Shown one piece after another: positions 4,818 through 36,149 of a DNA stretch of 64,000 nucleotides; within the stretch, counting starts at the first letter, position 1, and the number at the start of each line of letters is the position of its first letter. The position numbers were made by a program, and so were the translations under genes. A model generated the notes under the pieces. That model did no database searches. It worked only from the letters and a program-made list of their open reading frames with translations, and had not been told where the DNA came from. The stretch is from Flaccisagitta enflata (taxonomy: Eukaryota): assembly GCA_965153355.1 (NCBI GenBank), contig OZ231126.1, positions 38,316,001 through 38,380,000 on the forward strand, given 5' to 3'.

Positions 4818-4932
4818 CTGGATCCAGATCAGATCGTAGTCGAATAACAACGTTGAATTTGCTATAATACGACCAACAACGACAGCGACAACATCAACAA
4901 CAACAAACAACAACAACATTACCACCACCACC

Positions 4933-4985
<53 letters not shown>

Positions 4986-4989
4986 CTTT

Positions 4990-5105
<116 letters not shown>

Positions 5106-5114
5106 CGACAACAC

Positions 5115-7319: not shown

Positions 7320-8974
7320 CGTCAATAATTGTTACGCTACAAGATCAAAAAAAAAAAAAAAAAAAAACGAGAGAAAAAAATTCCCTTCATTTCAGCAAAT
7401 CTGTGAATCTTTTTAAATTTTGAAGTGAACTATTGCTTACAATAAGCTTTTTTTTTCATGCTCTTGCATAGTTTTTTGTCGAGATTTATACTCATAGCTC
7501 TTTTAAACAAGGTCAACAAACCTTAGTCGCGTGGTAATAAGGGTAATAAAGGTAATAAAGGTAAATAAGGTAATTAAGGTAATTAAGGTAATAAAGATAA
7601 TGAAGATAACTAAGTACCTATATCTTCCTATAATTACCCACGTTTACCTAAAACTACCTGTAAATACCTATAATTACCTACAATTACATAAAATTACTAT
7701 GAATTATCTATAATCACCTATAATTACCCATTATTTCCTATATTTCCTACAATATCCTCAATTTATAGTGCGAGACAACTTTTCTGACTTATATGATACA
7801 GATTACTAAAATACCTATATTTACCTAAAATTACCTGAAATTACCTATAATTACCAAAAATTGCCTATAATTACCTTTAATAACCTTCAATAACCTTTAA
7901 AACGACTATAAAGCCTATATTTCAAAAAAGTTACCGACCGACAGACCGACCGACAGACCGACCGACATAGCGGCTTCTAGAGTCGCGTTCACGCGACTAA
8001 AAACACATAGAACAGCAGTATTTTATGCACAACACAACCAAGACAGAAAAATCACGGGACAAAACAAATATAGAAAAAAAAAAGATTTTTAACATGAAAT
8101 ATTATCCTTTGCTGTGGATGTAATATTGTCTTTTTCTATACTGAAAATAGTTCTCCGAGCTTTATTTGATGAGTATAAAACACAACACAAACAAATTTGG
8201 ACCTAATTCAAAATGATAGATCAACTTGGCGCTTGCTACATGAATTGTGTGTGTTCACCTTGGACGCGTGTTTCCTTCGGCATCCATGGGACTCAGGGGA
8301 AAAGACGAATCTACGAGATCGAGAGAACAAGTGACGCGGGGTCACAATATCGTTGCGGACGGGTGGGCAAGGGCATTCAAACCCCATCCACCCCCCCAAC
8401 ACACACCCAAACTAGTCATCCAAGGATCGCACATGGTCAGCGGTACCCGATGCCCTGCTGGGAGTGATCCAGTGAAGAAGTGGAGGGAGAACAGGGCAGC
8501 GGCCCCAAAAGGCCGATGTCCTGTAGAACACATAGGGGAATTTCCAGACGTCCTGAGGGGGCATATTTAAAGCCTTAGATGACTGATTTAGGCCAAAGAG
8601 GGTATATTTGATGGCTGGAGGGCAGATTTAAGGCTTGGCGAGCAAATTTGATGCTTGAAGGGCTAATTGAAGGTCTGGAGAGCAGATTTGAGGTGTGGAG
8701 GTCAGATTTGAGGCTGGGGAGGTTGATTTGGAGGCTGGGGGGGCTGATTTGAAGCCTGGAAGGCTGTTTTGAGGCCAAGAAGGCTGATTTGAGGCCTGGA
8801 GGGCAAATTTGGGGCCTTGATGGCCAACGAGGGGATGGAAGGACGGACGGACGGACAGAAGGATGGACGTATGGAAATTCCCCCTTGTGTTCTACAAGAC
8901 ATCAACCCTTTGGAGCCACTGCCCAAAAAACATCTAAAACGCTTTTTGAGCAGTGGCCTTAAAGGGATCGATGA

Positions 8975-9975
8975 TGTCACGAAGCATGGTCTTGCACCAA
9001 TTTTGTCTATTCTTACGGATTATTTGGTTTGTATTTAGGCCTTAGATTTTGATTTATTGATTGATATTTTGGTTATATTAAGATATTTTACTTAGATTTG
9101 ACCATTTTATTTAGACTGGCTTTTATCGTTTGCATTTATTACAGGTTTGAATTATTCTGGTTTCATTTATTGACATTGCTTAGATTTATTGATTGATTTA
9201 TTGCCTCGTTTATTCGTTTATTTCAGGCATTTATTGATTTGTCTGTCTGATTTGTCCTCATTTCGGTCCAAATTGTTCATGTTTGTCCGTATGATCTTTT
9301 CTTGCTTTGCATTTTGTTTCTGTCATGAATCTCCTGCGCCTTTTGTTATTTGGGCTATTTTAGACCAAATTCGTAGCGCCCTCATTTGACCATTATTTGC
9401 ATTTTTTACTGGCTGACGCAATTCGGCTTCGAAGATTCCATGATATTTTATCGCGTTCTAGAACTTTTTGTTGCTTATATACCGCCATTTTGCCGGCAAT
9501 ATTCTCACGGACTCTAGAGAGACGCTTCGAATTACTAAAAACTACGTTTCCGTATATTAAATAGACGATTTTTACCATTATTTGCATCGATACGAGCATT
9601 ATTGGGACGCTTTTCGACTTCCCTTAGCGCCAAACAAAGGTGAGAGCTTGGTTTGGGTCCGTATTTTTTATTATTTTTCCTGTACTTAGCCTTATTTTTC
9701 CTGTTTCCGGCTTATTTTCCCCGTATTTAGCCTCATATTTTGTCATTATTCTGTCATTATTTGGTCAGTATTTTGTCACTTTTAGTAGTATTCATTATCT
9801 CCTTTATTTTCACTGTCTTGCAGCTTTAACTAACTTCGACTACCGTTCAAATAAAAGAAGATTTCGTTACGATCGCTCTGTATTTGTTTGGGGATCGAGG
9901 TTTAGTCACGAGCGGCGCAGCCGCATACAGGAGAGCTAGAGGCATTGGGCATTTAGTTTAGTACACCAGAATACA
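8975..9975 (+). repeat. 5' LTR (1001 bp)
   Basis: TG...CA ends, AATAAA at 9850-9855. Matches 34644-35644 at a constant offset of 25669, and three ORF-track translations are identical between the copies. Confidence 0.95.
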
Positions 9976-9990
9976 GTTAAAGCTTTAAAT
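9976..9990 (+). promoter_or_regulatory. Non-canonical primer-binding site region
   Basis: gttaaagctttaaat directly follows the LTR-terminal CA, with no TGG. Conserved in the inverted copies ending at 29686 and 33238, and complementary to LTR 9822-9831. Confidence 0.5.
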
Positions 9991-10797
9991 AGCGCATGCC
10001 CTGGCTCTTTTGTGTGTGTCTATCGTTGATCAGAACCCACAAAGACAAAGAACCGTCCTCAATCTTCGCTCGATCGAATCAACGCCCAAAGTAATAAAGA
10101 AACCGACGCGACGATCAAGAATCAACTCGGAATCGATGCCCCACTTGGACACGTATCTCATGAGAGAAAAAAAAATCCAAACAGAAGAAGGAAACCTCGT
10201 AAACGCCGATCGAGTCTTCTCCGAGGTAGCGCGTGAACAGATCAACTTGCGTGAATAATTAGTAAATCAAACTGACAGTCCCCGCTCACCCGGTGACCAT
10301 CGGAAACACCGCATTTTGCACACGTGAATTTGCACATCCCTAGAAAGCTAGAAACATCATTTTCAAGGGTCTTCGTTCACGAAGAAACTTGATTGTCAGT
10401 CAGTGTCATTTTCAAGCAGTTACACGTCTTCTGCTGAGGTCCCTCGTTCGCGAGTGACCTCGGCTCGCTAGAAATCCTTGCTACTAGAATCTAGAATTTC
10501 GAAGAGCCCCTCACCGGGTGATTCGGTCCTCTGTTAGATTTTTAGAAACGCTTAATTTTCGAAGAACCCCTTTCCGGGTAATTCGGTCCCGTCAGTCAGA
10601 ACATCAGGCTAATAAGGATAACAGCTGATTAGGCCTCGGTAACCGAGGACTTTCAAGCTGAGATCTTACAGGTCATTAGGGACATTTTTTCAGAGCTCGT
10701 TTGCAGCTTTGATAACAAACAAATCTCGAGAGTTGGGCCTATTTTGGCACCTAAGTTCGAGTCTCTCTGTTCATCAGAGGGTTCTAAACAGTCCCGT

Positions 10798-11641: not shown

Positions 11642-14600
11642 ATGCCTCGCTCACCACAAGGTAGCGGGATGTATCATGAGGTTAGCCCCCAGCATAGCCG
11701 CTATTATGCTAGGATCCTTGTCGATGACGCCACCAAGACTTTGAGGGAATTCCTGATAGCTCACGGCTTGGCCAGAGACTATCCGGAGCCAAAGTTTAAG
11801 CAGAGGGCAAATGATCTATTCTCTCAGGTCCAAAAAATGAAATTCGAACTGATAGAATTACCCCCATCCTTTCCACCAGATGAACAACAAAGAATAGACT
11901 CACTGATAGGAAGGATTCAGAATGAATTAGAAGGACACCCAGCCTTTTACATTCCATCAAGCGGAAATACTGCAAGTAATCCTTCGCTTCCTGCCTTCCC
12001 AATTCAAAGGGCTCCACCCGTGGTTCCTCGCGTTCACCATTCCTCCCAATCCATCTCACAGAGTCCCCCTTCCCTCATCGCATTCAGCGATAATTCCCGA
12101 GTCTCCCATCAGTTACAAAACGAGCCTATGGCCAGTTCTGACCAAGTTGAATCAGTCATTTCCGATCGGTTCTTTGACCCGCTCAGTATTCCCTCACAAG
12201 TTGCCAGTTCCTTCGATGGCCTCTCCACCATTGCAACGGTATCACGTCAAACAAACCAAGCATCACGCACGTTACGGCCATCCAAAGAACCAACGATCCC
12301 ACTTGTGCTAGAAAACAACGCCCCTCACAGAAACCATGACCAGATTATTAGAGGTCAGAAATTAAATGAACGCAATCATCAAAAACACTTGCGCTATGAT
12401 GACGCGGTCAAACAGACTAAAATCAATTCTTTGAACGCAATTGCAGCCAACCTCAGTGCTGCGGTCGATTTAATGAGGGAACTGATAATCAATAATCCTC
12501 TCGACGAAACTCCTTCGAATCAGCAAAGACAGGGCCACACAGAAAGATTGGGTGAAAGCGATCCACACACTCCTGCATCAGATTCAGATTCAGATTCTGA
12601 TACAGATTCAGATTCTGATACAGATTCAGATTCTGATACAGATTCAGATTCAGATTCTTCGGCCGAATGTGGCCCTCCTCAGCCTCAGACTTTCTGTTCC
12701 CAGATCCAGTTTCGTACTCAACCGACTCAAACTGATCACTTACTGATACAGAATCAGAACTATGTTCCTCAGTCTCAATTTCATGACAATTCCGAACAGA
12801 CTATGTCTAATCAGAACCAATCCGAGCGCACTCAAGTTAGATCTGGACCACTTCTGGACTTGGCTTGTTATCAGCCTGCTCAGTCTCATTCTCGGCCTGC
12901 TCAGTCTCATTCGCGGCCTGCTCAGTCTCATTCGCGGCCTGCTCAGTCTCATTCGCGGCCTGCTCAGTCTCATTCGCGGCCTGCTCAGACTCTCATTCAC
13001 GGCCTGCTCAGTCTCATTCGGCCTGCTCAGTCTCATTCTCGGCCGGCTCAGACTGATTGCCAATTTGCTCTAATAGACTTGGGTACCTCTTCCCCCACTT
13101 GCAGCACCGCCAGATACAGACCACAGTCCCAATCACAACAGACTCAGCATTCAGCGCAAATAATCGAAAACCAAAATACATGGCGAGCGGCAGGGCCCAG
13201 CTCGTTTGAAGCTTGGGCGAGTTCCGCAAGCCAACCACAACCACACACCACCCAACCACAACCACAACCACAGAGTAGGGAAGTGGAAAACCTTGCAAGG
13301 CTTTTCTGTGGCAATCACGATTCTACTTCTGCTCAAAACTCAGTCCGGCCTAAAACTCATGCATCTTTGCCAACGCCACCCAAGTATTATGACCCCATAC
13401 TCAGATTACCCACTCCCTCTTGGGATTCACCACAACATCAAAATGTCAATCAACATTCAAGACAGATTGACTCAGACTCACCAACCCTTTTGCGCGCGTC
13501 TGGAGTGAGTTACGCACCATCATACGCCCAACCCGCTTTGTTTCATCCTACTCCAGTTAAGGTGCAGATAAGCCATGAATTATTTGCCTCATCAAAATTT
13601 GGGATGGTTGTGTTGGCTCAGTCAAACAATCAAAGTCAGTCTGAAGACTCTTTTACCGTCATTGGCCCTGAAAACGACATCGAAGGGGCAATAGAAATTT
13701 CCTCAGAAGAAGCCGTTGAGGCCAACTCAGAAGAAGCCGTTGAGGCCAACTCAGAAGAAGCCGTTGAGGCCAACTCAGAAGAAGCCGTTGAGGCCAACTC
13801 AGAAGAAGCCGTTGAGGCCAACTCAGAAGAAGCCGTTGAGGCCAATTCAGAAGAAGCTGTTGAGGCCAACTCAGAAGAAGCCGTTGAGGCCAACTCAGAA
13901 GAAGCCGTTGAGGCCAACTCAGAAGAAGCCGTTGAGGCCAACTCAGAAGAAGCCGTTGAGGCCAACTCAGAAGAAGCCGTTGAGGCCAACTCAGAAGAAG
14001 CCGTTGAGGCCAACTCTGACGCCGAGGCTCAAGATGACGCCGAGGCTCAAGATGACGCCGAGGCTCAAGATGACGCCGAGGCTCAAGATGACGCCGAGGC
14101 TCAAGATGACGCCGAGGCTCAAGATGACGCCGAGGCTCAAGATGACGCCGAGGCTCAAGATGACGCCGAGGCTCAAGATGACGCCGAGGCTCAAGATGAC
14201 GCCGAGGCTCAAGATGACGCCGAGGCTCAAGATGACGCCGAGGCTCAAGATGACGCCGAGGCTCGAGATGACGCCGAGGCTCGAGATGACGCCGAGGCTC
14301 AAGATGACGCCGAGGCTCAAGATGACGCCGAGGCTCAAGATGACGCCGAGGCTCAAGATGACGCCGAGGCTCAAGATGACGCCGAGGCTCAAGATGACGC
14401 CGAGGCTCAAGATGACGCCGAGGCTCAAGATGACGCCATAGCTCAAGATGACGCCATAGCTCAAGATGACGCCATAGCTCAAGATGACGCCATAGCTCAA
14501 GATGACGCCACAGCTCAAGATGACGCCATAGCTCAAGATGACGCCAGCTCAAGATGACGCCATAGCTCAAGATGACGCCTAGCTCAAGATGACGCCATAG

Positions 14601-14887
14601 CTCAAGATGACGCCTAAGCTCAAGATGACGCCATAGCTCAAGGTGACGCCATAGCTCAAGGTGACGCCATAGCTCAAGATGACGCCATAGCTCAAGATGA
14701 CGCCATAGCTCAAGATGACGCCATAGCTCAAGATGACGCCATAGCTCAAGATGACGCCATAGCTCAAGATGACGCCATAGCTCAAGATGACGCCATAGCT
14801 CAAGATGACGCCATAGCTCAAGATGACGCCATAGCTCAAGATGACGCCGAGGCTCAGGACAACTATGGCATCTCAGAACTCATTTAG
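11642..14887 (+). CDS. ORF1a: putative Gag-N-terminal-like helical domain, low-complexity linker and acidic repeat tail (EEAVEANS)n(DAEAQD)n
   Basis: 971-aa ORF 11642-14557 in gag position after the LTR and leader. Small indels in the repeat at ~14546-14580 break the frame; otherwise it would end ...QDNYGISELI* at 14885-14887. No capsid or zinc-knuckle motif recognised, so Gag identity is positional inference. Confidence 0.6.
13703..14860 (+). repeat. 24-bp then 18-bp tandem arrays (tcagaagaagccgttgaggccaac; gacgccgaggctcaagat / gacgccatagctcaagat)
   Basis: Directly visible head-to-tail repeats without spacers. Confidence 0.97.
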
Positions 14888-16305
14888 TCCATTTCTACGC
14901 AAACTTCAGTCTTAGTATCAGACTCACTTGTGCATTCACATTTAGAAATGAGGACAATTTGTAAATATTGTGCATTATTTTCATTTCTCTCTTAAATTAA
15001 TGCTCTCATTTTTTGAATGATATTTGCCTGACTCTACAAGCGCGTCACATTCCCTAACAAACATGATATTTGTGTGACTCTAAAGTGGGTCACCCTTCCT
15101 TACAACAAACTAAGTCTCTCAGATGACCATGTATTGTTGTGCAACCTTATGCAATCCCAATACTAATTTCATTTTAAAGGCTTACAATGCCCGCAAGAAA
15201 AATGAAATGAATGAAGGGACTTCATCATTTAGAAATTAATCCATGGATCATTTTAGAAACGAGTCATGCTTCACCATACAACTTGGTTAACCGGAAAACC
15301 AAGCATATGGTTTTGCACGCTAATGTGAACAATTCAATTCTACTTGCATAATTCTAGATGTGGGTTATGCTTGTAGAGCTTCAGAATTTTGAACCTTGGG
15401 ATCCCAAAAAAAAACTTAAGACCTCAGAACCTCAGAACCTCAGAACCTCTCCCACTCAGCTAAGTATGGCATGAAATCCTGAAGCCGCAGAGGCGAGTTG
15501 AAAACAACGTTGGATACTGTGCCTTAATGCTTAGAAGGGAAACCTCAGAACCTCAGAACCTCTCCCACATACCTTAGTATGGTATGCAATCCTGAAGCCG
15601 CAGAGGCGAGTCGGACGCGACGCTGGACACTGAGCCTTTGAGCTCAGAAGGGAACAACAGAAACAAAACAGAACCAAAACTTTGTAAGTGAAAATAAGTG
15701 GCAGTGCACTAGCTCGTCTGTAATTCGGGCGAGTTCCGCGAGTTTTCACTCTCGAGGTATCTCCATTGTAAATATCATCATTCATTTGTCTTCACCTTTA
15801 TTGATTATGAGAATTTAACCATTTGCCATCCCCGACATAGACGTTGGAATGATAAGATGAATTAATCCGGTAATCTTAGATTCAAATGACATGTCATAAC
15901 ATGTCTAAAAGAGACAAGAAAAAACAAACGAATCAGAACATACGAAAGAACAAGAAAATACAAACGAATCAGAAAGAAAATGAAACCAAAAGGAGAATCA
16001 AAATCAGAAGAAAAGTGGTATTACTTTCAGAACAAATTGAAAAGAACAACAGATAGAAGAAGAACAGAATGATACAGAACAGATAGAAAAAGAACAGAAT
16101 GAAAAAGAACAATCAAACGCGCCAGAACAGATAGAACCCGAAGAGTCCGTTCGCCGAATGAATGGAAATAACAATTGATTCGTTCAAATTGTTCGTTCGT
16201 CAAAGAGAAGCGGATTGAATAAACGATTCCGCTGAGAAGTTAATCGTTCTTGTCGTCGATGGATCATTGTCGTATTTTTCCCGCCATCGTCTTTGTTGTT
16301 GTTGC

Positions 16306-16341
<36 letters not shown>

Positions 16342-19052
16342 GTTGTTAATGTTGTTTTTGTTGTTAGTGTTGTTTTGTCGCTGATGTTGTTTTGTTGTTG
16401 ATGTTGTTTTGTTGTTAATGTTGTTTTTGTTGTTAGTGTTGTTTTGTCGTTGATGTTGTTTTGTTGTTGATGTTGTTTTGGTTGTTGATGTTGTTTTGTT
16501 GATGTTGTTTCGTTGTTGATGTTGTTTTCGTTGTTAGTGTTGTTTCGTTGTTGTTTTGTAGCCGTCTGGTTCGCGGAGCTGCTGCAATCTACATGGCGAG
16601 CGAGACTGCCGCTCACCATCTGGTGTGATTCTCGGTGATGAAGTCGCTGACAAAAGTTATTAAATGTTCAAATTTGTTGATGCTTGAAGACTTGAAGCCA
16701 ATATTGCATAAGAGATGAGTTTCAGGCTCGCGACTTCCGTCCACACATGTCATCAGCTTTACTAGCGCCTCCTCGCCACTGTCACCAATTTCTGTCTCGC
16801 GAAAACATCAATCAGTCCAATGATTCAGAGGTGGTTGAGCAATCAACTGTCATTTATGTAGCTGTCCCAAAATACCGCTTCGTGTCGGTCAGTCCGGGTT
16901 TGGCGATAGAGTTTGAGTTCTTCTAAATCTAATGTTTCATATTCTTTTTCTCCTATTTTGATTTCTAGCAAGTCTGGTTCTTTATTGTTTTCCTCTGTTT
17001 TGTCTCATTCTGTTTCTTTCTGTTCTGACTCACTAAATTGTTTTTTTTTCGATCTGCTCTGGTTCTATCTGTTCTGGCGCGCTTGATTGTTCTTTTTCAT
17101 TCTGTTCTTTTTCTATCTGTTCTGTATCATTCTGTTCTTCTTCTATCTGTTGTTCTTTTTCTATTTGTTCTGAAAGTAATACCACTTTTCTTCTGATTTT
17201 GATTCTCCTTTTGGTTCATTTTCCCCCTGATTCGTTTGTATTATCTTGTTCTTTCGTATGTTCTGATTCGTTTGTTTTTTCTTGTCTCTTTTAGACATGT
17301 TGTGACATGTCATTTGAATCTAAGATTACCGGATTAATTCATCTTATCATTCCAACGTCTATGTCGGGGATGGTAAATGATTAAATTCTCATAATCAATA
17401 AAGGTGAAGATAAATGAATGATGATATTTACAATGGAGATACTTTGAGAGTGAAACTTGCGGAACTTGCCCAAATTACAGACGAGCTAGTGCACTGCCTC
17501 TTATTTTCACTTACAAAGTTTTGGTTCTGTTTTGTTTCTGTTGTTCCCTTCTGAGCTCAAAGGCTCAGTGTCCAGCGTCGCGTCCGACTCGCCTCTGCGG
17601 CTTCAGGATTTCATACCATCTTAAGGTATGTGGGAGAGGTTCTGAGGTTTCCCTTCTAAGCATTAAGGCACAGTATCAAACGTTGTTTTCAACTCGCCTC
17701 TGCGGCTTCAGGATTTCATGCCATACTTAGCTGAGTGGGAGAGGTTCTGAGGTTCTAAGGTTCTGAGGTTCTGAGGTTCTGAGGTCTTAAGTTTTTTGGG
17801 ATCCCAAGGTTCAAAATTCTGAAGCTCTACAAGCATAACCCACATCTAGAATTATGCAAGTAGAATTGAATTGTTCACATTAGTATGCAAAACCATATGC
17901 TTGGTTTTCCGGTTAACCAAGTTGTATGGTGAAGCATGACTCGTTTCTAAAATGATCCATGGATTAATTTCTAAATGTTGAAGTCCCTTCATTCATTTCC
18001 TTTTTCTTGTGGGCATTGTGGGCCTTTAAATGAAATTAGTAATGGGATTGCATAAGGTTGCACAACAATACATGGTCATCTGAGAGACTTAAGTTTGTTG
18101 TAAGGAAGCGTGACCCACTTGTAGAGTCACGCGAATATCATGTTGTTTGTTAGGGAATGTGACCCGCTTGTAGAGTCACGCACATATCATGTTTCAGAGA
18201 GCATTAATTTAAGAGAGAAATGAAAATAATGCACAATATTTACAAATTGTCCTCATTTCTAAATGTGGATGCACAAGTGAGTCTGACACTAAGACTGAAG
18301 TTCGCGTAGAAATGGACTAAATGAGTTCTGAGATGCCATTGTTGTCCTGAGCCTCGGCTTCATCTTGAGCTATGGCGTCATCTTGAGCTATGGCGTCATC
18401 TTGAGCTGTGGCGTCACCTTGAGCTATGGCGTCACCTTGAGCTATGGCGTCATCTTGAGCTATGGCGTCATCTTGAGCCTCGGCGTCATCTTGAGCCTCG
18501 GCGTCATCTTGAGCCTCGGCGTCATCTTGAGCCTCGGCGTCATCTTGAGCCTCGGCGTCTTCTTGAGCCTCGGCGTCTTCTTGAGCCTCGGCGTCTTCTT
18601 GAGCCTCGGCGTCTTCTTGAGCCTCGGCGTCTTCTTGAGCCTCGGCGTCTTCTTGAGCCTCGGCGTCATCTTGAGCCTCGGCGTCATCTTGAGCTCGGCG
18701 TCATCTTGAGCCTCACTTGAGCCTCGGCGCATCTTGAGCCTCGGCGTCATCTTGAGCCTCGGCGTCATCTTGAGCCTCGGCCATCTTGAGCCTGGCGTCA
18801 TCTTGAGCTCGGCGTCATCTTGAGCCTCGGCGTCATTTTGAGCCTGGCGTCATCTTGAGCCTCGGCGTCATCTTGAGCCTCGGCGTCATCTTGAGCTCGG
18901 CGTCATCTTGAGCCTCGCGTCATCTTGAGCTCGGCGTCATCTTGAGCCTCGCGTCATCTTGAGCCTCGGCGTCATCTTGAGCCTCGGCGTCATCTTGAGC
19001 CTCGGCGTCATCTTGAGCCTCGGCGTCATCTTGAGCCTCGGCTTCTGAGTTG
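14005..19052. repeat. Large inverted repeat (arms ~14005-16138 and ~17061-19052, ~920-bp loop)
   Basis: 14852 gctcaggacaactatggcatctcagaactc pairs with 18323-18352. 16110-16138 aatcaaacgcgccagaacagatagaacc pairs with 17061-17088. Confidence 0.9.
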
Positions 19053-19789
19053 GCTCTGTTTGCACCTGTTTGGGACCTGCACCCTACTGTACTCGCTGCG
19101 GCTGTGGAGCTACTCGAGTCAGATGAATGATGATCAGGTTGACTGGATCGAGTTGGGTTGTGACGGGGTGGGGGTTCAATCTGACTTTGGTCAAAAATGG
19201 GGTTAGTTCGCTTGGGGTCATTGTTAAATTGAGGATTATCATGTGGCGGTGGCGGCGCCGGTAGAAGCGGCGGCGGCGCCGGTAGAGACGGCGGCGGCGC
19301 CGGTAGAGACGGCGGCGGCGCCGGTAGAGGTGGCGGCGGCGCCAGCGGAGGCGGCGCCAATGGTGGTGATGGCGGCGCTGATGGTGGCGGCGGCGCTGAT
19401 GGTGGCGGCGGTTTTGTAGCCGCAGTTCCGTCGAGGAAAGACTGAGTGAGAGTCGGATCAATAGCAACTAACGCTGGAATGTTATAGGCTGGATGACGTT
19501 CTAATGCGCACTGAATCAATCCTATCATGGTGTATATCGTTTCTTGTTCGTCTGAGGGGAAAGTTGGGGGTAATTTTGTAAGCTCACATTTCACCTCTTC
19601 GACCAGAGAGCGTAAATCATTCGCCCCTTTCTTAAATCGTGGTTTTGAATCGTCTCTGCCCATGTTGTGAACTCTCAGGAATTCCTGCATTAAGTCGGCA
19701 GCGTCACTGACAAGATCCTCGGCGTGACGGCTGACGTGTTTGGAGTCAACGTCATGATACGTCCCTTTACCCTGTGGTAAGCCAGACAT
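18317..19789 (-). CDS. ORF1b: divergent paralog of the ORF1 N-terminal domain with polyproline linker and the same DAEAQD tail
   Basis: The first ~105 aa align without gaps to ORF1a at about half identity by manual count (PQGxGxYH, EFL, RD, FK, ANDL, LPPxFPxDEQ, HPA). ORF track 18920-19789. The tail has several 1-nt indels and ends in the same GISELI*. Confidence 0.6.
18347..19052 (-). repeat. 18-bp tandem array, inverted copy
   Basis: ggcgtcatcttgagcctc units, with many 1-nt indels at ~18690-18960. Confidence 0.95.
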
Positions 19790-20413
19790 ATTGACGGGTT
19801 ACTTTCTGGGGTGAGCAGAGATTTGGACGATAAAATCGCCCTTCCGGAAGTCCTCAGTTTCCGAGGCGTAATCGGCGAAAATCTAGCTGATGCAGGACTC
19901 ATCGGGAGTTAATGATCTCGCTATTTTAGGTCAAGGTTTTACCAGCCGAAGTTAGGGAACGGGTCCCTGTGGCAGAGATGGAACTGGCGACGTGATTCTA
20001 TTCACTGTCTTTTTCACTTTATTTTCTATCTTTTATGCTCCTCGTTTACTCTTTTTCTTTTTATCTTTTGGGATTCTTTTTAACTTTCGAGTTCTTTCTT
20101 TCCAAGTTCTCTATTTCCTTACAAATTCTGCGAATATTATCTCTGACTCATAGTTTCTTTCATTTCTTCAACTTTCTAAGTTCTGAGTAGAAACAAATCG
20201 CGGAACTGGCCCGAGCTACAGACGAGCGGGCACGGCCGCTCTCCGTCCTCGGTTTGGCAGGGTGACTTCGTGTTTTCTATTTTTCTTTTAATTTTTTTTT
20301 TCTTTTTCTAATTCTTTCTTTCCGAGTATTTCTTCTTTTCTTTTTCTTTTCTTTTTCTTTTCTTTTTCTTCCTTTTCTTTTTCTTTTTCTTTTATTCGTC
20401 CTCTCCTTGGCCT

Positions 20414-21982
20414 TTGGCCGCCACTGGTAAGATAGCCGAGTGGAGGTGGAAAGTGAGACGCATTGCTATCATTAGGCGAGTCTTGTTAAAATTGAGGGAA
20501 GTGGTTAAGAATAAAAAAGAAAACCTGGTGAGTTCCAGATTGCGATCAGGAAATAATAAATCCAAAGAAAAATTACGCATTCATCTAAGTGAGGAAGAAA
20601 AGGAGGCTGCTGAGTATCTTTTGATCAGATCAATCCAAAGTGAGGAATTTGAGAAAGAAACAACCAAATTAATCAAATTAGGCATTTTCTCACCTAACAC
20701 TATCCACGATATGAACATCAAAGATACCAAATTAGCAAAATTATGCCCCTTCCTAGACTCACATAATGTCATGCGAGCAGGTGGTAGAATAGCCAAAGCT
20801 GAGTATCTGCCATACAACCACAGATACCCCATCATACTTCCAAACAGCACTTCAGAACCCATTAGGGCACTTATAAGGCACTACCACCAGGCCCATTACA
20901 AAAGATTCCACTGCACAGTGCAACAAACTTACTACCTTCTGAGAACCAAATATTTCATACTTGGTGGCAAAAATTCAGTCAGAAGTGTTTTGAGTAAATG
21001 CATAGTCTGTCAGAAACTTTCAAAACGCAAGGCAGCACAAAAGGAAGGTGATCTACCACTCGAAAGGATGGCAATGGTACCCCCATTTTACCATTGTGGT
21101 TTAGATTGCCTAGGACCCTTCCATTTGAGACATACAGGCAGAAACACCCGCAAGCAATTCGTGCTCATTGCATGCTGCATGTCCACTCGTGCCATTACTT
21201 TAGTGCCACTTCGCGATATGACCACCTCTAGCATCATAAATTCACTGATCAAAATCCACTCACAGTTTCCCGCCCTTAAAAATTTGTACTCTGACAATGG
21301 GTCAAATTTTAAGGGCGCAGACAGAGAAATTAGGGAAGCAGTGGCAGCTTGGAAAAAAGAGGATTTAGATGAGAGGTTAAGCGATCTGGAACTCACTTGG
21401 ACCTTTGGGCCGGCCTATTGTGGTAGCGCCGGAGGGAGTTGGGAGCGTTTAATAGGATTGTCAAAGAAACTATTAAGAAGTGTAATTGGTGACAAAAACA
21501 TCGATATTGAGGATTTTGAAACCTTGTTGGCAGGAGCCAGTTCTATCATGAATCGTCGTCCACTGATGCCGGCATCGGCAGATGTAGACGATGATCAGAT
21601 TTTAACTCCAAGTCATTTCCTCTATCCTTACCTATTCACTTCTGACGCTACTCATATTCTCCCTCCTCAGGCCGAACACAATCACGTCCTGAAACACGGG
21701 TGGAAGTGCTCCCAATTTCTCCTCGATCAATTTTGGCGAAGGTTCAGCACGGAATACATTCAAGAACTGATAAAAAGAAACAAACAAAACACGACGCCTA
21801 TCAAAGTAAACACGCTGGTCCTCATCGAAGACGTGGAAGCTTCGAGAGAATCATGGAAAGTCGGTCGAATAGTAGACATTCTCAACGGTGACAAAACCCA
21901 CGGAAGAAGGTTTAAAATCCGATTAGCCTCTGGGAAAACTATCGATCGTCATATATCATCGTGTGTAATTCTTGAGACCTAA
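20414..21982 (+). CDS. Isolated BEL/Pao integrase (RNase H-IN linker, HHCC, DDE core, DUF5641-like C-terminus)
   Basis: Pao-type motifs: LCPFLD...RAGGRI...YPIILP, H..YH...CIVC, GLDCLGPF (D), SDNGSNFKGA (D), GGSWERLIG (E), NRRPL, LTPSHFL, FWRRFSTEYI, WKVGRI. It is 5'-truncated, opening on TTG with no RT or RNase H upstream. Confidence 0.92.
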   Translation: MAATGKIAEWRWKVRRIAIIRRVLLKLREVVKNKKENLVSSRLRSGNNKSKEKLRIHLSEEEKEAAEYLLIRSIQSEEFEKETTKLIKLGIFSPNTIHDMNIKDTKLAKLCPFLDSHNVMRAGGRIAKAEYLPYNHRYPIILPNSTSEPIRALIRHYHQAHYKRFHCTVQQTYYLLRTKYFILGGKNSVRSVLSKCIVCQKLSKRKAAQKEGDLPLERMAMVPPFYHCGLDCLGPFHLRHTGRNTRKQFVLIACCMSTRAITLVPLRDMTTSSIINSLIKIHSQFPALKNLYSDNGSNFKGADREIREAVAAWKKEDLDERLSDLELTWTFGPAYCGSAGGSWERLIGLSKKLLRSVIGDKNIDIEDFETLLAGASSIMNRRPLMPASADVDDDQILTPSHFLYPYLFTSDATHILPPQAEHNHVLKHGWKCSQFLLDQFWRRFSTEYIQELIKRNKQNTTPIKVNTLVLIEDVEASRESWKVGRIVDILNGDKTHGRRFKIRLASGKTIDRHISSCVILET

Positions 21983-22602: not shown

Positions 22603-25600
22603 CTAAATGAGTTCTGAGATGCCATTGTTGTCCTGAGCTATGGCGTCATCTTGAGCTATGGCGTCATCTTGAGCTATGGCGTCATCTTGAGCTATGGCGT
22701 CATCTTGAGCTATGGCGTCATCTTGAGCTATGGCGTCATCTTGAGCTATGGCGTCATCTTGAGCTATGGCGTCATCTTGAGCTATGGCGTCATCTTGAGC
22801 TATGGCGTCATCTTGAGCTATGGCGTCATCTTGAGCTATGGCGTCATCTTGAGCTATGGCGTCATCTTGAGCTATGGCGTCATCTTGAGCTATGGCGTCA
22901 TCTTGAGCTATGGCGTCATCTTGAGCTATGGCGTCATCTTGAGCTATGGCGTCATCTTGAGCTATGGCGTCATCTTGAGCTATGGCGTCATCTTGAGCTA
23001 TGGCGTCATCTTGAGCTATGGCGTCATCTTGAGCTATGGCGTCATCTTGAGCTATGGCGTCATCTTGAGCTATGGCGTCATCTTGAGCCTCGGCGTCATC
23101 TTGAGCCTCGGCGTCATCTTGAGCCTCGGCGTCATCTTGAGCCTCGGCGTCATCTTGAGCCTCGGCGTCATCTTGAGCCTCGGCGTCATCTTGAGCCTCG
23201 GCGTCATCTTGAGCCTCGGCGTCATCTTGAGCCTCGGCGTCATCTTGAGCCTCGGCGTCATCTTGAGCCTCGGCGTCATCTTGAGCCTCGGCGTCATCTT
23301 GAGCCTCGGCGTCATCTTGAGCCTCGGCGTCATCTTGAGCCTCGGCGTCATCTTGAGCCTCGGCGTCATCTTGAGCCTCGGCGTCATCTTGAGCCTCGGC
23401 GTCATCTTGAGCCTCGGCGTCATCTTGAGCCTCGGCGTCATCTTGAGCCTCGGCGTCATCTTGAGCCTCGGCGTCATCTTGAGCCTCGGCGTCATCTTGA
23501 GCCTCGGCGTCATCTTGAGCCTCGGCGTCATCTTGAGCCTCGGCGTCATCTTGAGCCTCGGCGTCATCTTGAGCCTCGGCGTCATCTTGAGCCTCGGCGT
23601 CATCTTGAGCCTCGGCGTCATCTTGAGCCTCGGCGTCATCTTGAGCCTCGGCGTCATCTTGAGCCTCGGCGTCATCTTGAGCCTCGGCGTCATCTTGAGC
23701 CTCGGCGTCATCTTGAGCCTCGGCGTCATCTTGAGCCTCGGCGTCATCTTGAGCCTCGGCGTCATCTTGAGCCTCGGCGTCATCTTGAGCCTCGGCGTCA
23801 TCTTGAGCCTCGGCGTCATCTTGAGCCTCGGCGTCATCTTGAGCCTCGGCGTCATCTTGAGCCTCGGCGTCATCTTGAGCCTCGGCGTCATCTTGAGCCT
23901 CGGCGCCATCTTGAGCCTCGGCGTCATCTTGAGCCTCGGCGTCATCTTGAGCCTCGGCGTCATCTTGAGCCTCGGCGTCATCTTGAGCCTCGGCGTCATC
24001 TTGAGCCTCGGCGTCATCTTGAGCCTCGGCGTCATCTTGAGCCTCGGCGTCATCTTGAGCCTCGGCGTCATCTTGAGCCTCGGCGTCATCTTGAGCCTCG
24101 GCGTCATCTTGAGCCTCGGCGTCATCTTGAGCCTCGGCGTCATCTTGAGCCTCGGCGTCATCTTGAGCCTCGGCGTTATCTTGAGCCTCGGCGTTATCTT
24201 GAGCCTCGGCGTCATCTTGAGCCTCGGCGTCATCTTGAGCCTCGGCGTCATCTTGAGCCTCGGCGTCATCTTGAGCCTCGGCGTTATCTTGAGCCTGGGC
24301 GTCATCTTGAGCCTGGGCGTCATCTTGAGCCTGGGCGTCATCTTGAGCCTGGGCGTCATCTTGAGCCTGGGCGTCATCTTGAGCCTCGGCGTCATCTTGA
24401 GCCTCGGCGTCATCTTGAGCCTCGGCGTCGGAATGAGCCTCGGCGTCGGAATGAGCCTCGATGTCGGAATGAGCCTCGATGTCGGAATGAGCCTCGATGT
24501 CGGAATGAGCCTCGACATTGGAATGAGCCTCGACGTCGGAATGAGCCTCGACGTCGGAATGAGCCTCGACGTCGGAATGAGCCTCGACGTCGGAATGAGC
24601 CTCGACGTCGGAATGAGCCTCGACGTCGGAATGAGCCTCGACGTCGGAATGAGCCTCGACGTCGGAATGAGCCTCGACGTCGGAATGAGCCTCGACGTCG
24701 GAATGAGCCTCGACGTCGGAATGAGCCTCGACGTCGGAATGAGCCTCGACGTCGGAATGAGCCTCGACGTCGGAATGAGCCTCGACGTCGGAATGAGCCT
24801 CGACGTCGGAATGAGCCTCGACGTCGGAATGAGCCTCGACGTCGGAATGAGCCTCGACGTCGGAATGGGCCTCGACGTCGGAATGGGCCTCGACGTCGGA
24901 ATGGGCCTCGGCTTCGGAGTGGGCCTCGGCTTCGGAGTGGGCCTCGGCTTCGGAGTGGGCCTCGGCTTCTGAGTGGGCCTCGGCTTCTGAGTGGGCCTCG
25001 GCTTCTGAGTGGGCCTCGGCTTCTGAGTGGGCCTCGGCTTCTGAGTGGGCCTCGGCTTCTGAGTGGGCCTCGGCTTCTGAGTGGGCCTCGGCTTCTGAGT
25101 GGGCCTCGGCTTCTGAGTGGGCCTCGGCTTCTGAGGGCCTCGGCTTCTGAGTGGGCCTCGGCTTCTGAGTGGGCCTCGGCTCTGAGTGGGCCTCGGCTCT
25201 GAGTGGGCCTCGGCTTCTGAGTGGGCCTCGGCTTCTGAGTGGGCCTCGGCTTCTGAGTGGGCCTCGGCTTCTGAGTGGGCCTCGGCTTCTGAGTGGGCCT
25301 CGGCTTCTGAGTGGGCCTCGGCTTCTGAGTGGGCCTCGGCTTCTGAGTGGGCCTCGGCTTCTGAGTGGGCCTCGGCTTCTGGGTGGGCCTCGGCTTCTGG
25401 GTGGGCCTCGGCTTCTGAGTGGGCCTCGGCTTCTGAGTGGGCCTCGGCTTCTGAGTTGGCCTCGGCTTCTGAGTTGGCCTCGGCTTCTGAGTTGGCCTCG
25501 GCTTCTGAGTTGGCCTCGGCTTCTGAGTTGGCCTCGGCTTCTGAGTTGGCCTCGGCTTCTGAGTTGGCCTCGGCATCTGAGTTGGCCTCGGCATCTGAGT

Positions 25601-27761: not shown

Positions 27762-29686
27762 ATTGATGGGCTATTCTCTGGGTTAGCAAAGAGACTCGAA
27801 CTTGCTTGCCAATTTAGGCCCACCTCGTCATTTTTTGAAGTTTTAGAGCTATAGACGAGCTCTTAAGAAAGTTTTCTAACAGTTACTTGCTCCCAAGCCA
27901 AAATTCCTCGGATGCCGAGGCATAATTGACTGAATTGATGTAGGATGCAGAACTGAATCAACTCAACTGAATTGAGTTTCATTGATAACAAATACTTCTA
28001 TTTCCCAGGTCAAATGGATTCTAACTTTCGAGTTTTTTCTAAATTTCGAGTTCTTTCTAACTTTCGAGTTCTTTCTTTCCAAGTTCTTTATTTCCTTCCA
28101 AGTTCTGCGAATTTAATTCTGATTCATAGTTTCTTTCATTTCTTCGTCGTTCTGAGTAGGAACAGGATTGCGGAACTGGCCCGAGCTACAGACGTGCGGG
28201 CACGGCCGCTCTCCGTCCTCGGGTTGGCAAAGAGACTTCGTGTTTTCTATTTTTTTTCACTTTTTCTTTTTTTTTCTTTTCTAATTTTTTTTCCGAATAT
28301 TCTTTCTTTTCTTTTTCGTTCTTTTCTTTTTCGTTCTTTTCTTTTTCTTCTTCTTTATCTTTCGCGTCTTTTTTTCCTACTGTTCTCTTTCTTTCTTTCT
28401 ACCTTTCCGAGTTCTTTTCTTTTTTTACGTTGGAATTTAAGGTTTTGCCGCGCAAGCTACTACATGCTTTAAGGGTTCTGTTTTCACTGATTCTTTTCCT
28501 CTCTAGATTCCAACTGACATCCCGCGATCGTCGGGCGTAGTGTCCCCGTGAAAGTACATCCCGCGGCCCTTGGGCCTGCGGGACATACGGGACTGTTTAG
28601 AACCCTCTGATGAACAGAGAGACTCGAACTTAGGTGCCAAAATAGGCCCAACTCTCGAGATTTGTTTGTTATCAAAGCTGCAAACGAGCTCTGAAAAAAT
28701 GTCCCTAATAATTACTAACGATCTCAAGTTGATGATCCTCGGTGACCGAGGCGTAATCAACAAGAATGAACTGAGTGCAGAACCGAGTCAGTTCGATTAA
28801 ATCGAGTTCCTCGGTAAACTGCGCCTTTAAGGTTCCTGATGATTTCTGACAGATGCTCGATGTTCTCAGTCCGAAGGTCCTCGATTATTCCATTGTTCCT
28901 TTCATTAAATTCGCTGACTGACTAATGGTCCAAATTACCCGGTGAGGGGTTCTTCGTGAAGTTGACGATTCTAAAATCTAGTAATCCTGACTAACTGACA
29001 AGGCCGAATTACCCGGTGAAGGGTTCTTCGAAAAAATAGACGTTTCTAAAAATCTAGGTGATCTGACTGACTGACAGGGGGACGAATTACCCGGTGTGGG
29101 GTTCTTCGAGTTTCTAGTTTCTAGTAGAATGGATTTCTAGCTAGCCGAGGTCACTCGCGAACGAGGGACCTCAGCAGAAGACTGCTAAATGCTTGTAATT
29201 GACTAACTGACAATTCAAGTTCCTTCGGTGACCGAAGATCCTTGAATATTAATGGTACTAGCTTGCTAGATTGTGCAAATCGACGTGTGCAAATGCGGGT
29301 GCTTTCCGATGGTCACCGGGTGAGCGGGGACTGTCGGTCTGATTTTCTAATTACTCGCGTAAGTTTTTCTGTTCACGCGTTGCCTCGGAGAAGAAAGACT
29401 CGGTCGAGTATTTCTCCGTCTTCTGTTCAGATTTCTTTTTTTGTGAGATACGTGTCTTTGTTCTTGATCGCGTGAGTTTCTTGGTTACGTTGGGCATCGA
29501 TTCTGAGCTGATTCTCGATCGGTTTCTTCTTGATCAATTTGGGCGTTAATTCTGAGTGGGTTCTTGATCGTCGTCGAATACTCACCAATCGAGCGAACAT
29601 TGAGGACGGTTCTTTGTCTTCTTGGGTTCTGATCAACGATAGACACACACAAAAGAGCCAGGGCATGCGCTATTAAAAGCTTTAAC
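27762..29686 (-). repeat. Inverted 5' leader of the internal unit
   Basis: Reverse complement of 9976-11641 with an extra ~200-bp segment. Confidence 0.88.
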
Positions 29687-30741
29687 TGTATTGTCGTGTA
29701 CTAAACTAATGCCCAATGCCTCTAGCTCTCCTGTATGCGGCTGCGCCGCTCGTGACTGAACCTCAATCCCACGAATAATACAGAGCGATCTCAATGCGAT
29801 CTTCTTTTATTTGAACGTAGGCGAAGCAGTTAAAGCTGCAAGACAGTGAAAAATGAAAGGAGCTAATGAAAATGCAGCTAAATATACAGATATCTAGCCA
29901 GAAATACTCAATAATACTGAAAGTGACCAAATACTGAACGAATAATGACGGAATAATGACGGAATAATGACAAAAATACGGGAAAAATAAGCCGTAAACG
30001 GGAAAAATATGGCTAAGTACGGGAAAAATAATACGAAATATGAACCCAAATCAAGCTCTCACCTTTGTTTGGCGCTCAGGGAAGTCAAATAGGCGTCCTA
30101 ATAAGGCTCGTATCAGTGCAAAATATGGTGAAAAGCGTCTATTTAATAGGCGAAAGAGTAGTTTTTAGCAATATGAGCGTCTTTTCTAGATTCTGTAAGG
30201 AAATATCGTCGGCAAAATGGCGGTAACTAAGCAACGAAAGGTTCTAGAAAATCATAGAATTCTATGGAAATCTTCAATTTCCCTTCGAGGTTCGATTGCG
30301 TCAGCCAGTAAAAATGCCAATATCGGTCAATTGAGGGCGCTACGAAATCGGTCTAAAATAGCCCAAATGACAAAAGGCGCAATGAATTCATAACAGGAAC
30401 GAAATGCAAGGCAAGAAAATATCATACGGACAAACATGAGCAATTTGGACAGAAATAAGGACAAATCAGACGGACAAATCAATAGATGCATGAAATAAAC
30501 GAATAAATGAGTCAATAAATCAATCAATAAATCTAAACGATGTCAATAAATGCGATCAGAATAAATCAAACCTGTAATAAATGCAAACGATAAAAACCAA
30601 TCTAAATAAAACGGTCAAATCTAAGTAAAATATCTAAATATAATCAAAAATATCAATCAATAAATCCAAATCTAAGGCCTAAATACCAACCAGATAATCC
30701 GTAAGAAATGATAGAATTGGTGCAAGACCATGCTTCACGAC
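29687..30741 (-). repeat. Internal inverted, diverged LTR of the same family
   Basis: Reverse complement of the terminal LTR with many substitutions and indels. It ends in ...ATACA followed by the same gttaaagct site. The first T of the TG terminus is missing at the junction with the La cassette. Confidence 0.9.
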
Positions 30742-30758
30742 TCGTTCAAATTGTTCGT

Positions 30759-31964: not shown

Positions 31965-33240
31965 TTAATTTTTTTTTTCTTTTTCTAATTCTTTCTTTCC
32001 GAGTATTTCTTTTCTTTTCTTTTTTCTTTCTTTTTCTTTTCTTTTCTTTTCTTTTCTTTCTTTCTTTCTTTCTTTCTTTTCTTTTTCTTTTTTCTTTTTC
32101 TTTCTTTCTTTTCGTTGGAATTAAAGGTTTTGCCGCGCGAGCTACTACATGCTTAAAGGGTTCTGTTTTCACTGATTTTTTTCCTCTCTAGATTCAAACT
32201 GACATCGTGCGATCGTCGGGCGTAGTGTCCCCGTGAAAGTACATCCCGCGGCCCTTGAGCCTGCGGGACATACGGGACTGTTTAGAACCCTCTGATGAAC
32301 AGAGAGACTCGAACTTAGGTGCCAAAATAGGCCCAACTCTCGAGATTTGTTCTGAGATTAAAGCTACAAACGAGCTTTAAAATGCCTTAAATGACGTGTG
32401 ATCTCAGCTTGAAAGTCCTCGGTTACCAAGGCCTAATCAGCTGTTGTCCTTGACTTGATGTCCTGACTGACTGACAGGGCCGAATTACCCGGTGAAGGGT
32501 TCTTCGAAAAAATAGACGTTTCTAAAAATCTAGGTGATCTGACTGACTGACAGGGCCGAATTACCCGGTGAAGGGTTCTTCGAAAAAATAGACGTTTTTA
32601 AAAATCTAGGTGATCTGACTGACTGACAGGGGGATGAATTACCCGGTGTGGGGTTCTTCGAGTTTCTAGTTTCTAGTAGAATGGATTTCTAGCTAGCCGA
32701 GGTCACTCGCGAACGAGGGACCTCAGCAGAAGACTGCTAAATGCTTGTAATTGACTAACTGACAATTCAAGTTCCTTCGGTGACCGAAGATCCTTGAATA
32801 TTAATGGTACTAGCTTGCTAGATTGTGCAAATAGACGTGTGCAAATGCGGGTGCTTTCCGATGGTCACCGGGTGAGCGGGGACTGTCGGTCTGATTTTCT
32901 AATTACTCGCGTAAGTTTTTCTGTTCACGCGTTGCCTCGGAGAAGAAAGACTCGGTCGAGTATTTCTCCGTCTTCTGTTCAGATTTCTTTTTTTGTGAGA
33001 TACGTGTCTTTGTTCTTGATCGCGTGAGTTTCTTGGTTACGTTGGGCATCGATTCTGAGCTGATTCTCGATCGGTTTCTTCTTGATCAATTTGGGCGTTA
33101 ATTCTGAGTGGGTTCTTGATCGTCGTTGAATACTCACCAATCGAGCGAACATTGAGGACGGTTCTTTGTCTTCTTGGGTTCTGATCAACGATAGACACAC
33201 ACAAAAGAGCCAGGGCATGCGCTATTAAAAGCTTTAACTG
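31965..33240 (-). repeat. Inverted copy of the element 5' leader placed upstream of La
   Basis: Near-identical to 28430-29688 (offset 3552 over its distal part). Starts with the LTR-terminal CA and gttaaagct. Confidence 0.88.
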
Positions 33241-34629: not shown

Positions 34630-34643
34630 AAAAACGGGGGGAG
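34630..34643 (+). promoter_or_regulatory. Polypurine tract (plus-strand primer)
   Basis: Purine-rich run (A5-C-G6-AG) immediately 5' of the TG of the 3' LTR. Confidence 0.85.
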
Positions 34644-35644
34644 TGTCACGAAGCATGGTCTTGCACCAATTTTGTCTATTCTTACGGATTATTTGGTTTG
34701 TATTTAGGCCTTAGATTTTGATTTATTGATTGATATTTTGGTTATATTAAGATATTTTACTTAGATTTGACCATTTTATTTAGACTGGCTTTTATCGTTT
34801 GCATTTATTACAGGTTTGAATTATTCTGGTTTCATTTATTGACATTGCTTAGATTTATTGATTGATTTATTGCCTCGTTTATTCGTTTATTTCAGGCATT
34901 TATTGATTTGTCTGTCTGATTTGTCCTCATTTCGGTCCAAATTGTTCATGTTTGTCCGTATGATCTTTTCTTGCTTTGCATTTTGTTTCTGTCATGAATC
35001 TCCTGCGCCTTTTGTTATTTGGGCTATTTTAGACCAAATTCGTAGCGCCCTCATTTGACCATTATTTGCATTTTTTACTGGCTGACGCAATTCGGCTTCG
35101 AAGATTCCATGATATTTTATCGCGTTCTAGAACTTTTTGTTGCTTATATACCGCCATTTTGCCGGCAATATTCTCACGGACTCTAGAGAGACGCTTCGAA
35201 TTACTAAAAACTACGTTTCCGTATATTAAATAGACGATTTTTACCATTATTTGCATCGATACGAGCATTATTGGGACGCTTTTCGACTTCCCTTAGCGCC
35301 AAACAAAGGTGAGAGCTTGGTTTGGGTCCGTATTTTTTATTATTTTTCCTGTACTTAGCCTTATTTTTCCTGTTTCCGGCTTATTTTCCCCGTATTTAGC
35401 CTCATATTTTGTCATTATTCTGTCATTATTTGGTCAGTATTTTGTCACTTTTAGTAGTATTCATTATCTCCTTTATTTTCACTGTCTTGCAGCTTTAACT
35501 AACTTCGACTACCGTTCAAATAAAAGAAGATTTCGTTACGATCGCTCTGTATTTGTTTGGGGATCGAGGTTTAGTCACGAGCGGCGCAGCCGCATACAGG
35601 AGAGCTAGAGGCATTGGGCATTTAGTTTAGTACACCAGAATACA
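34644..35644 (+). repeat. 3' LTR (1001 bp)
   Basis: Copy of 8975-9975, preceded by the PPT and followed by TSD GATGA. Confidence 0.95.
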
Positions 35645-35676
35645 GATGACCTATACTTTCACACATATGGGGTATT

Positions 35677-35708
<32 letters not shown>

Positions 35709-35715
35709 CTCCTCC

Positions 35716-35747
<32 letters not shown>

Positions 35748-36149
35748 CTTCTTCTTCTTCTTCTTCTTCTCAAACCCCCCTCTCCCCCCAGCCTCGAGGC
35801 CCATATCTCAGCCTCAACGCCCATATCTCAGCCTGGAGGCCCAAATTTCAGTCTTGAGGCCTAAATCCAAATCTCAAGACCCAAATCCCAACCCCAGGGC
35901 TAAAATTCCAGCATAGGTCATTGACCCCTTCGGTTTCGCTGCCCTACTCCCCCCTCAACTTCAACCACAACCTACTTAAGCAGGGCTCGGATACCGCTGA
36001 CCATCTGACGCCTTCGCGACTATTTCCACTTTTCGACTCGTGCATTATGGACGGACGGATTGACAGACCAACGGACGGGCGGACGGACAAAGCCTCTTAC
36101 AGAGTTGCGTGTCTGCAATTGAACATAATATTGGGTGCTGGAAGACCGG

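Follow-up and report, generated by a model that had tools for sequence, protein, structure and literature searches.

Reverse transcription of the long terminal repeat (LTR) retrotransposon Tf1 is primed by the element itself: bases 1 to 11 of its RNA anneal to the primer site, and a cut by RNase H follows between base 11 and base 12 (PMC7175516). Apart from Tf1, for which self-priming has been shown, it has been predicted so far for Ty3/gypsy chromoviruses and for one Ty1/copia lineage, namely from the complement between LTR and primer site in Tj1 of S. japonicus (PMC4600332) and for 12% of plant elements, in the Tcn1 (Ty3/gypsy) and TAR (Ty1/copia) lineages (PMC6317226); hairpin priming has also been discussed as possibly ancestral (PMC3601003). 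BEL/Pao elements, on the other hand, are described in the ICTV profile as having a 4.2-10 kb genome, LTRs of 0.2-1.2 kb and an 18-nt site for tRNA-Arg or tRNA-Gly (PMC8742986), and a survey of animal LTR elements reports a tRNA site in 1151 of 1512 (PMC13524379). A full-text literature search returned nothing linking self-priming with Pao, BEL, Belpaoviridae or semotivirus, the co-mentions being about plants, fungi or general matters. Here we describe an LTR retrotransposon from Flaccisagitta enflata, found in a window of 64,000 nucleotides (assembly GCA_965153355.1, contig OZ231126.1, positions 38,316,001 to 38,380,000), whose candidate primer site is the exact complement of a stretch of its own LTR. 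Tf1-like self-priming is the best single explanation of this arrangement; it is unproven, and we assign it a probability of roughly 0.45.

The locus resembles Tf1 and Tf2 of Schizosaccharomyces pombe (Tf1/sushi) in that a tRNA-type site is absent and 10-11 nt at the U5 border (11 nt in Tf1) complement a stretch of the LTR (PMC7175516). It differs in that the RNA start, the RNase H cut and the RNA structure were shown experimentally in Tf1, whereas here they are predicted from the sequence; in that Tf1/sushi elements are Ty3/gypsy chromoviruses, whereas the only pol remnant here is of the BEL/Pao type; and in that the dominant local structure here is a 23-bp stem between U5 and the leader, which competes with the duplex in nested folding. 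With Tj1, Tcn1 and TAR the locus shares the kind of argument, in which a primer site complementary to an LTR stretch farther upstream leads to the proposal of self-priming (PMC4600332, PMC6317226), but those predictions drew on many members or on an active cloned element, while two LTR-bearing copies in one window of a metazoan host are available here. BEL/Pao elements (Belpaoviridae) are matched in LTR length, TG..CA termini, 5-bp duplication and polypurine tract, and a pol remnant of that type lies between the LTRs in the same orientation; the differences are a unit of 26.7 kb, the lack of a CCA-type site, and the presence of an orphan open reading frame (ORF) instead of an intact gag-pol.

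A recent integration without a CCA-type primer site

The 5' LTR (8975..9975, plus strand) measures 1001 bp, runs from TGT to ACA and is the same in every base as the 3' LTR (34644..35644, plus strand; 1001/1001 bp, 100% identity by self-BLAST). Both are bordered by the 5-bp target-site duplication GATGA (8970..8974 and 35645-35649), and a polypurine tract, AAAAACGGGGGGAG (34630..34643, plus strand), abuts the 3' LTR. The general features of LTR retrotransposons are thus all present, namely direct LTRs that end in TG..CA, the duplication of the target site and the polypurine tract, and the LTR pair bears the signature of one recent integration of a genuine, very young LTR retrotransposon in the plus orientation. 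The identity of the LTRs, together with the duplication and the polypurine tract, implies that a working primer site was used recently. The opposite orientation was considered and rejected: read in the plus sense, the sequence just inside the right LTR forms a good polypurine tract, and the one just inside the left LTR, read in the minus sense, is not rich in purines.

A preliminary description of this DNA had noted that no tRNA primer-binding site follows the terminal CA of the LTR, and our reading agrees with it. The bases after the CA are GTTAAAGC; no TGG occurs from 9960 to 10001, and no CCA-type site is found. This excludes the mature 3' end (CCA) of a tRNA as the primer. Within 9960-10025 there is a single TGG; it begins at 10002, 27 nt beyond the LTR boundary. 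We rejected it as a displaced tRNA site, for the LTR boundary would have to shift by 27 nt and the acceptor stem of the tRNA would presumably have to be AU-rich.

Complementarity between the primer site and the LTR

The candidate primer-binding site, AGTTAAAGCT (9975..9984, plus strand), straddles the end of the LTR, A9975 being both the last LTR base and the first paired base. As the preliminary description had stated and direct reading of the sequence confirms, it is the exact reverse complement of AGCTTTAACT (9822..9831, plus strand), hereafter the LTR site, which is the candidate for the first 10 nt of the element RNA and for the start of R. In the copy that follows the 5' LTR (copy A), the 10-nt complement is exact and is flanked by mismatches on both sides. 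The 3' LTR carries its own copy of the LTR site (35491-35500). The exact 9-mer AGCTTTAAC occurs six times on the two strands of the window, and all six occurrences are LTR or post-LTR sites of this family; if one mismatch is tolerated, the word shows no enrichment (21 occurrences vs 18.1 expected). The primer site also overlaps a perfect 12-nt palindrome, TTAAAGCTTTAA (9977..9988, plus strand; direct reading), of which two further copies of the family, B and C, retain only the 8-nt core AAAGCTTT owing to an A-to-T difference at 9988.

The location of the LTR site is consistent with a transcript start. Transcription usually begins at a pyrimidine-purine step, and A9822 is preceded by C. The only AATAAA of the LTR (9850..9855, plus strand) lies 18 nt past the LTR site, close to the 20 nt or so of the preliminary description, and a GT-rich stretch at about 9886-9900, some 30 nt after AATAAA, makes a polyadenylation site near 9875 plausible. 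R would then be about 50 nt long if it started at the LTR site. The earlier suggestion that R could begin here therefore fits as far as position is concerned; the promoter motifs, which fit less well, are weighed below.

How often such a complement arises by chance was estimated in several ways. When the LTR was shuffled with its dinucleotides preserved, the downstream bases being held fixed and the complement being allowed anywhere in the LTR and to start from -2 to +6 relative to the LTR end, an exact complement of at least 10 nt appeared in 53 of 5000 shuffles (1.06%). The same test slid along the window, which is rich in repeats, succeeded at 48 of 1698 arbitrary positions (2.8%), and the observed duplex energy of -12.6 kcal/mol was equalled in 9 of 200 shuffles.

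Conservation in copies B and C

Copy B is a diverged, internal copy on the minus strand whose LTR (29687..30742) is about 90% identical to that of copy A in aligned columns, its first bases having decayed. Its LTR site, AGCTTTAACTG (29827..29837, minus strand), and its primer site, CAGTTAAAGCT (29678..29688, minus strand), which starts from the C of the terminal CA, form an exact complementary pair of 11 nt, again with mismatches on either side, in accordance with the 11-bp pairing reported for this copy in the preliminary description. The 25-nt block that includes the LTR site in copy A (9807-9831) is identical in copy B, where a 43-nt insertion lies just upstream. The only change nearby is an A in copy A vs a G in copy B right after AACT, which lets the C of the terminal CA pair as well in copy B. 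Between the two copies the pairing is kept, the single change in copy B is one-sided and none is compensatory, so that no covariation is seen. The retention of the two 10-mers in copy B is weak evidence when taken by itself, since about 12% would be expected at 90% identity.

The most conserved block of the family (9974..10074, plus strand) runs from the last bases of U5 across the primer site into the leader, and is 96% identical to copy C. Between copies A and B, 143 of the 150 positions at 9925-10074 are identical, as against 36-47 of 50 in the upstream LTR windows (8975-9924) and mostly 36-41 of 50 in the leader windows downstream, two of which score higher (49/50 at 10275-10324 and 48/50 at 10425-10474). 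These two short leader windows aside, the most constrained stretch is the one made up of the U5 end, the primer site and the beginning of the leader. The sole difference between A and B within 20 nt past the LTR is the one at 9988. A canonical 18-nt site would include this position, whereas the 10-11-nt duplex does not, which speaks weakly for a short primer.

Copy C (31969..33240, minus strand) consists of a primer site and a leader without an LTR. Its leader is 97% identical to that of copy B, and the part that resembles A and B begins precisely with the terminal CA of the LTR. Upstream of it (33241/33240 junction, minus strand) lies an inverted piece of the internal region of the family, and no partner of AGCTTTAAC is found there. 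We considered whether copy C could represent a second LTR type with the same site and rejected this because of the inverted internal flank and the missing partner motif. Such a breakpoint would be left by an aborted complementary DNA made on a template that reached no farther than the 5' edge of the primer site. That the break falls exactly at the CA supports (CA)GTTAAAGC... as the primer site, and gives no indication of the identity of the primer. The breakpoint would also fit a dead-end product of reverse transcription or snap-back synthesis.

Relatives of the conserved site were also sought outside the window. A 26-nt pattern of it matched 0 loci among prokaryotic genome contigs, which was a long shot, and a profile of 18 pol proteins run against prokaryotic genome contigs gave 39 pattern matches, 0 of them confirmed.

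RNA structure around the primer site

The LTR end and the primer site are enclosed by a long stem between U5 and the leader. Its 5' arm (9922..9945, plus strand) pairs with the 3' arm (9996..10018, plus strand), the 23 bp being made up of 18 bp (9922-9939/10001-10018), a 1-nt bulge and 5 bp (9941-9945/9996-10000). The duplex energy of this stem is -37.6 kcal/mol, vs a mean of -16.4 and a best value of -26.7 in 200 shuffles; the stem is far stronger than the 10-bp pairing. No copy that has the arms shows a change in them: both are identical in copy B, and the 3' arm is 100% conserved in copies A, B and C. Between the arms, the LTR end and the primer site lie in a 50-nt loop (9946-9995) whose own fold is weak (-3.9 kcal/mol), to be compared with -11.7 kcal/mol (A) and -14.6 kcal/mol (B) for the duplex between the primer site and the candidate 5' end of the RNA. 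When the RNA from 9822 to 10000 is folded, the structure of lowest energy is closed by this 5'-end duplex, whose base pairs have probabilities of 0.55-0.73 in copy A and 0.38-0.51 in copy B.

By analogy with retroviruses, in which U5 pairs with the leader just beyond the primer site and the site sits in the loop, the models suggest that the primer site here would be presented as retroviral primer sites are. The retroviral loop binds a tRNA, however, whereas the loop described here has no CCA complement. The folding models are restricted to nested structures and leave pseudoknots outside their scoring. As modelled, folding neither supports nor refutes self-priming.

Proposed priming mechanism

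Self-priming is favoured because a CCA-type site is missing from an element that was recently active, because the complement is exact and sharp-ended, and because of the position of this complement. Directly observed are the anatomy of the element, the exact complement and the fact that copy B retains it, as well as the stem and the lack of a CCA-type site; from these we infer a transcript start, a cleavage and the priming itself along the following lines. Transcription would start at A9822, and the first 10 nt of the RNA (11 in the subfamily of copy B) would fold back on (C)AGTTAAAGCT at the U5 border, this primer stretch being displayed in the 50-nt loop closed by the 23-bp stem. A cut by RNase H past the paired bases would then free the 3' end of the self-primer, AGCUUUAACU(G), which would prime minus-strand DNA synthesis through U5 and R. 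The remaining part of R, from about 9832 to 9875, would support the first strand transfer.

A wider proposal, which we put forward tentatively and consider doubtful, is that a BEL/Pao-associated metazoan family gave up tRNA priming, its own first 10-11 nt pairing as a pseudoknot with a primer site held in a stem-loop. Self-priming would in that case have arisen independently in a third LTR-retrotransposon superfamily and would be common to the non-autonomous element and its autonomous partner. Were self-priming to be true, independence from host tRNAs would have evolved repeatedly, part of the animal LTR elements left without a primer site by tRNA-only pipelines would find an explanation, and a simple sequence rule would become available for the annotation of self-primed elements.

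Several observations weigh against self-priming. The match exceeds what is usual by chance, yet only at about the 1-5% level. The duplex, which is weak and rich in A and T, takes in the terminal A of the LTR (the CA in copy B), and the palindrome in the site means that part of the complement is also a direct repeat. The copies that bear an LTR number only two, their site cores are identical with zero compensatory change, and both complementary sites sit within blocks that are conserved anyway. With at least 30 nt more of the leader, the stem displaces the 5'-end duplex, whose probability falls to 0 in both copies, and forcing this duplex costs 15.5 kcal/mol, both figures being those of nested models. 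Moreover, the stem and the 5'-end duplex cross, so that their coexistence requires a pseudoknot. Finally, a word search found no TATAWAW in the LTR of copy A, and copy B has TATATTTA (29886-29879) 32 nt ahead of the A of TCATTT (29856-29851), a pair of motifs which, taken by their consensus, would place the start 17 nt upstream of the site.

Alternative explanations

The main rival to self-priming, which we deem less likely, is that a host RNA primes at 9976-9995, be it a tRNA half or internal fragment, a mitochondrial tRNA or another small RNA, and that the complement in the LTR is incidental. The geometry would suit such a primer: the distance from the LTR end to the stem arm is 20 nt, approximately a canonical 18-nt site plus 2 nt, and tRNA-primed elements typically present their primer site in this retrovirus-like way, between an arm in U5 and one in the leader. 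In our controls, chance produced a 10-nt complement in 1-5% of cases, and a primer site that does not start with TGG is also what characterizes the half-tRNA priming of copia-type elements. In addition, BEL/Pao priming is described as relying on tRNA-Arg or tRNA-Gly (PMC8742986) and that of Achilles on tRNA-Tyr (PMC4580426), while half-tRNA priming is given for 2% of plant elements and no identifiable site for 6% (PMC6317226). Against a host primer stands, besides the missing TGG that excludes a mature tRNA 3' end, the composition of the site, which seems unusually AT-rich for the complement of a tRNA: TTAAAGCTTTAAAT has 2 G/C in 14 nt, which would be unlike the stems of cytosolic tRNAs. The difference at 9988 between the subfamily of A and that of B and C also falls within what would be the 18-nt site. 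As for candidate genes, ARAGORN found 0 tRNA genes in the window and Rfam 0 matches at gathering score, results that say little on the rest of the host genome; with E up to 10, Rfam gave one meaningless match in 9700-10200 (tp2, 16.5 bits vs a gathering score of 50).

We give little credence to a second alternative, according to which the complementarity is functional without serving priming, either as a long-range contact between R and the primer site or through the palindrome, which would act as a dimer-initiation (kissing-loop) site controlling packaging or access to the primer site. A palindrome in the loop of a long stem is indeed the layout of retroviral dimer-initiation hairpins, and here the 12-nt palindrome, or its 8-nt core in B and C, occupies the loop of such a stem within the most conserved region of the family (9925-10074, 143/150). 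This loop of 50 nt is far larger than known kissing loops, however, in B and C the palindrome does not extend past 8 nt, and a role other than priming would leave the primer itself unidentified.

A chance match at a locus not made by normal replication, where identical LTRs would stem from recombination, gene conversion or assembly collapse and the post-LTR bases need not be a working primer site, appears improbable: the interior is indeed pieced together from partial copies in inverted arrangement (A, A', B, C and D), with an antisense-joined pol remnant and a La retrocopy, its long inverted repeats could mislead assemblers, and 26.7 kb is far above the 4.2-10 kb given for BEL/Pao (PMC8742986), but the GATGA flanks, the polypurine tract placed exactly at the 3' LTR and the TG..CA ends fit one integration, and the post-LTR sequence is the most conserved part across three copies.

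Classification and interior of the element

By self-BLAST, the LTR pair encloses a rearranged mosaic of 24.7 kb, the whole unit reaching 26.7 kb. The only retroelement domains among the 149 frames of at least 90 residues in the window are those of a truncated BEL/Pao pol remnant (20393..21979, plus strand), which is the integrase and DUF5641 part and corresponds to the last 529 of 1430 residues; Pfam found no protease, reverse transcriptase or gag in any of these frames. The remnant is 98% identical to a 1430-residue polyprotein (P0004) whose relatives carry the Pao peptidase PF05380 and PF18701. This match to a full-length protein suggests that the same host harbours a BEL/Pao element that is active and autonomous.

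Since the only pol of the window matches BEL/Pao polyproteins and not those of Ty3/gypsy chromoviruses, the element is not a member of the Tf1/sushi clade, and its mechanism would be Tf1-like only hypothetically. While the 1001-bp LTR and the polypurine tract fit BEL/Pao, the 26.7-kb unit does not, and the 18-nt site for the 3' end of a host tRNA is lacking, there being no CCA complement. The link consists of the truncated pol remnant, which lies between the LTRs in the same orientation, and membership is not established on these sequence grounds. Indeed, the remnant is broken on both sides and is contiguous with neither the LTR, the primer site nor the leader, so that the label of BEL-related given to this LTR in the preliminary description is not borne out. 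Within this window, the element has LTRs and cis signals but no gag-pol of its own, which is the pattern of non-autonomous (LARD-like) elements, and it is therefore probably mobilised in trans.

In place of gag-pol, copy A encodes an orphan protein, ORF1 (11642..14557, plus strand), with a three-helix N-terminal domain followed by disordered repeats of 6 and 8 residues. The N-terminal domain (11642-11940) is modelled as a three-helix bundle (helices within residues 17-98), with a predicted local distance difference test (pLDDT) score above 90 for approximately residues 21-100, and gave 0 PDB matches at E <= 0.001. Its sequence has 16 relatives in a representative library. No Pfam domain, whether gag, pol or other, was found in ORF1 or in 12 of these 16 relatives; a search for a homologue of 181-578 residues returned none, and an Atlas search was also empty. 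ORF1 was considered as a gag and rejected, no Pfam, homologue or structure match supporting it. Arrays of 18- and 24-bp units, with up to about 100 copies, occupy 13702-14856, 18348-19042 and 22642-25722; they lie in the ORF1 frames (974 residues in A, 1566 in B), which remain open throughout, and encode acidic repeats of 6 and 8 residues.

Elsewhere in the mosaic, copy A' (17058-19045) is an inverted duplicate of the 3' part of A and is followed by a small inverted fragment, D (19475-20397); further on, the LTR of copy B (30742-29687, minus strand) leads into its leader and then into its ORF1 (27770-23070). The region 14144-19045 forms a near-palindrome, 14144-16141 being found inverted at 17058-19045 with 92% identity around a centre of 0.9 kb, and this centre occurs again, inverted, at 33288-34206. 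Between copies B and C lies an intronless, C-terminally cut ORF for a La protein (30762-31862, minus strand) with a La domain and RRM_3. It shares 98% identity with residues 1-362 of P0140, a La protein of 423 residues, whereas identity to the best named La relatives is about 41%. The ORF starts right past the leader of copy C and stops about 17 nt short of the LTR of copy B. It looks like a retrocopy or a captured fragment of a host mRNA wedged between fragments of the element.

Within U3, a 13-nt direct repeat, CCATTATTTGCAT, occurs twice (9390-9402 and 9575-9587), in the 3' LTR too, and contains an octamer-like word, ATTTGCAT; the repeat may be an enhancer element. Outside the element, a CTC/CTT microsatellite (35680-35760) begins about 35 nt beyond the right target duplication, and a (CAA)n array of about 80 units occupies 4874-5113.

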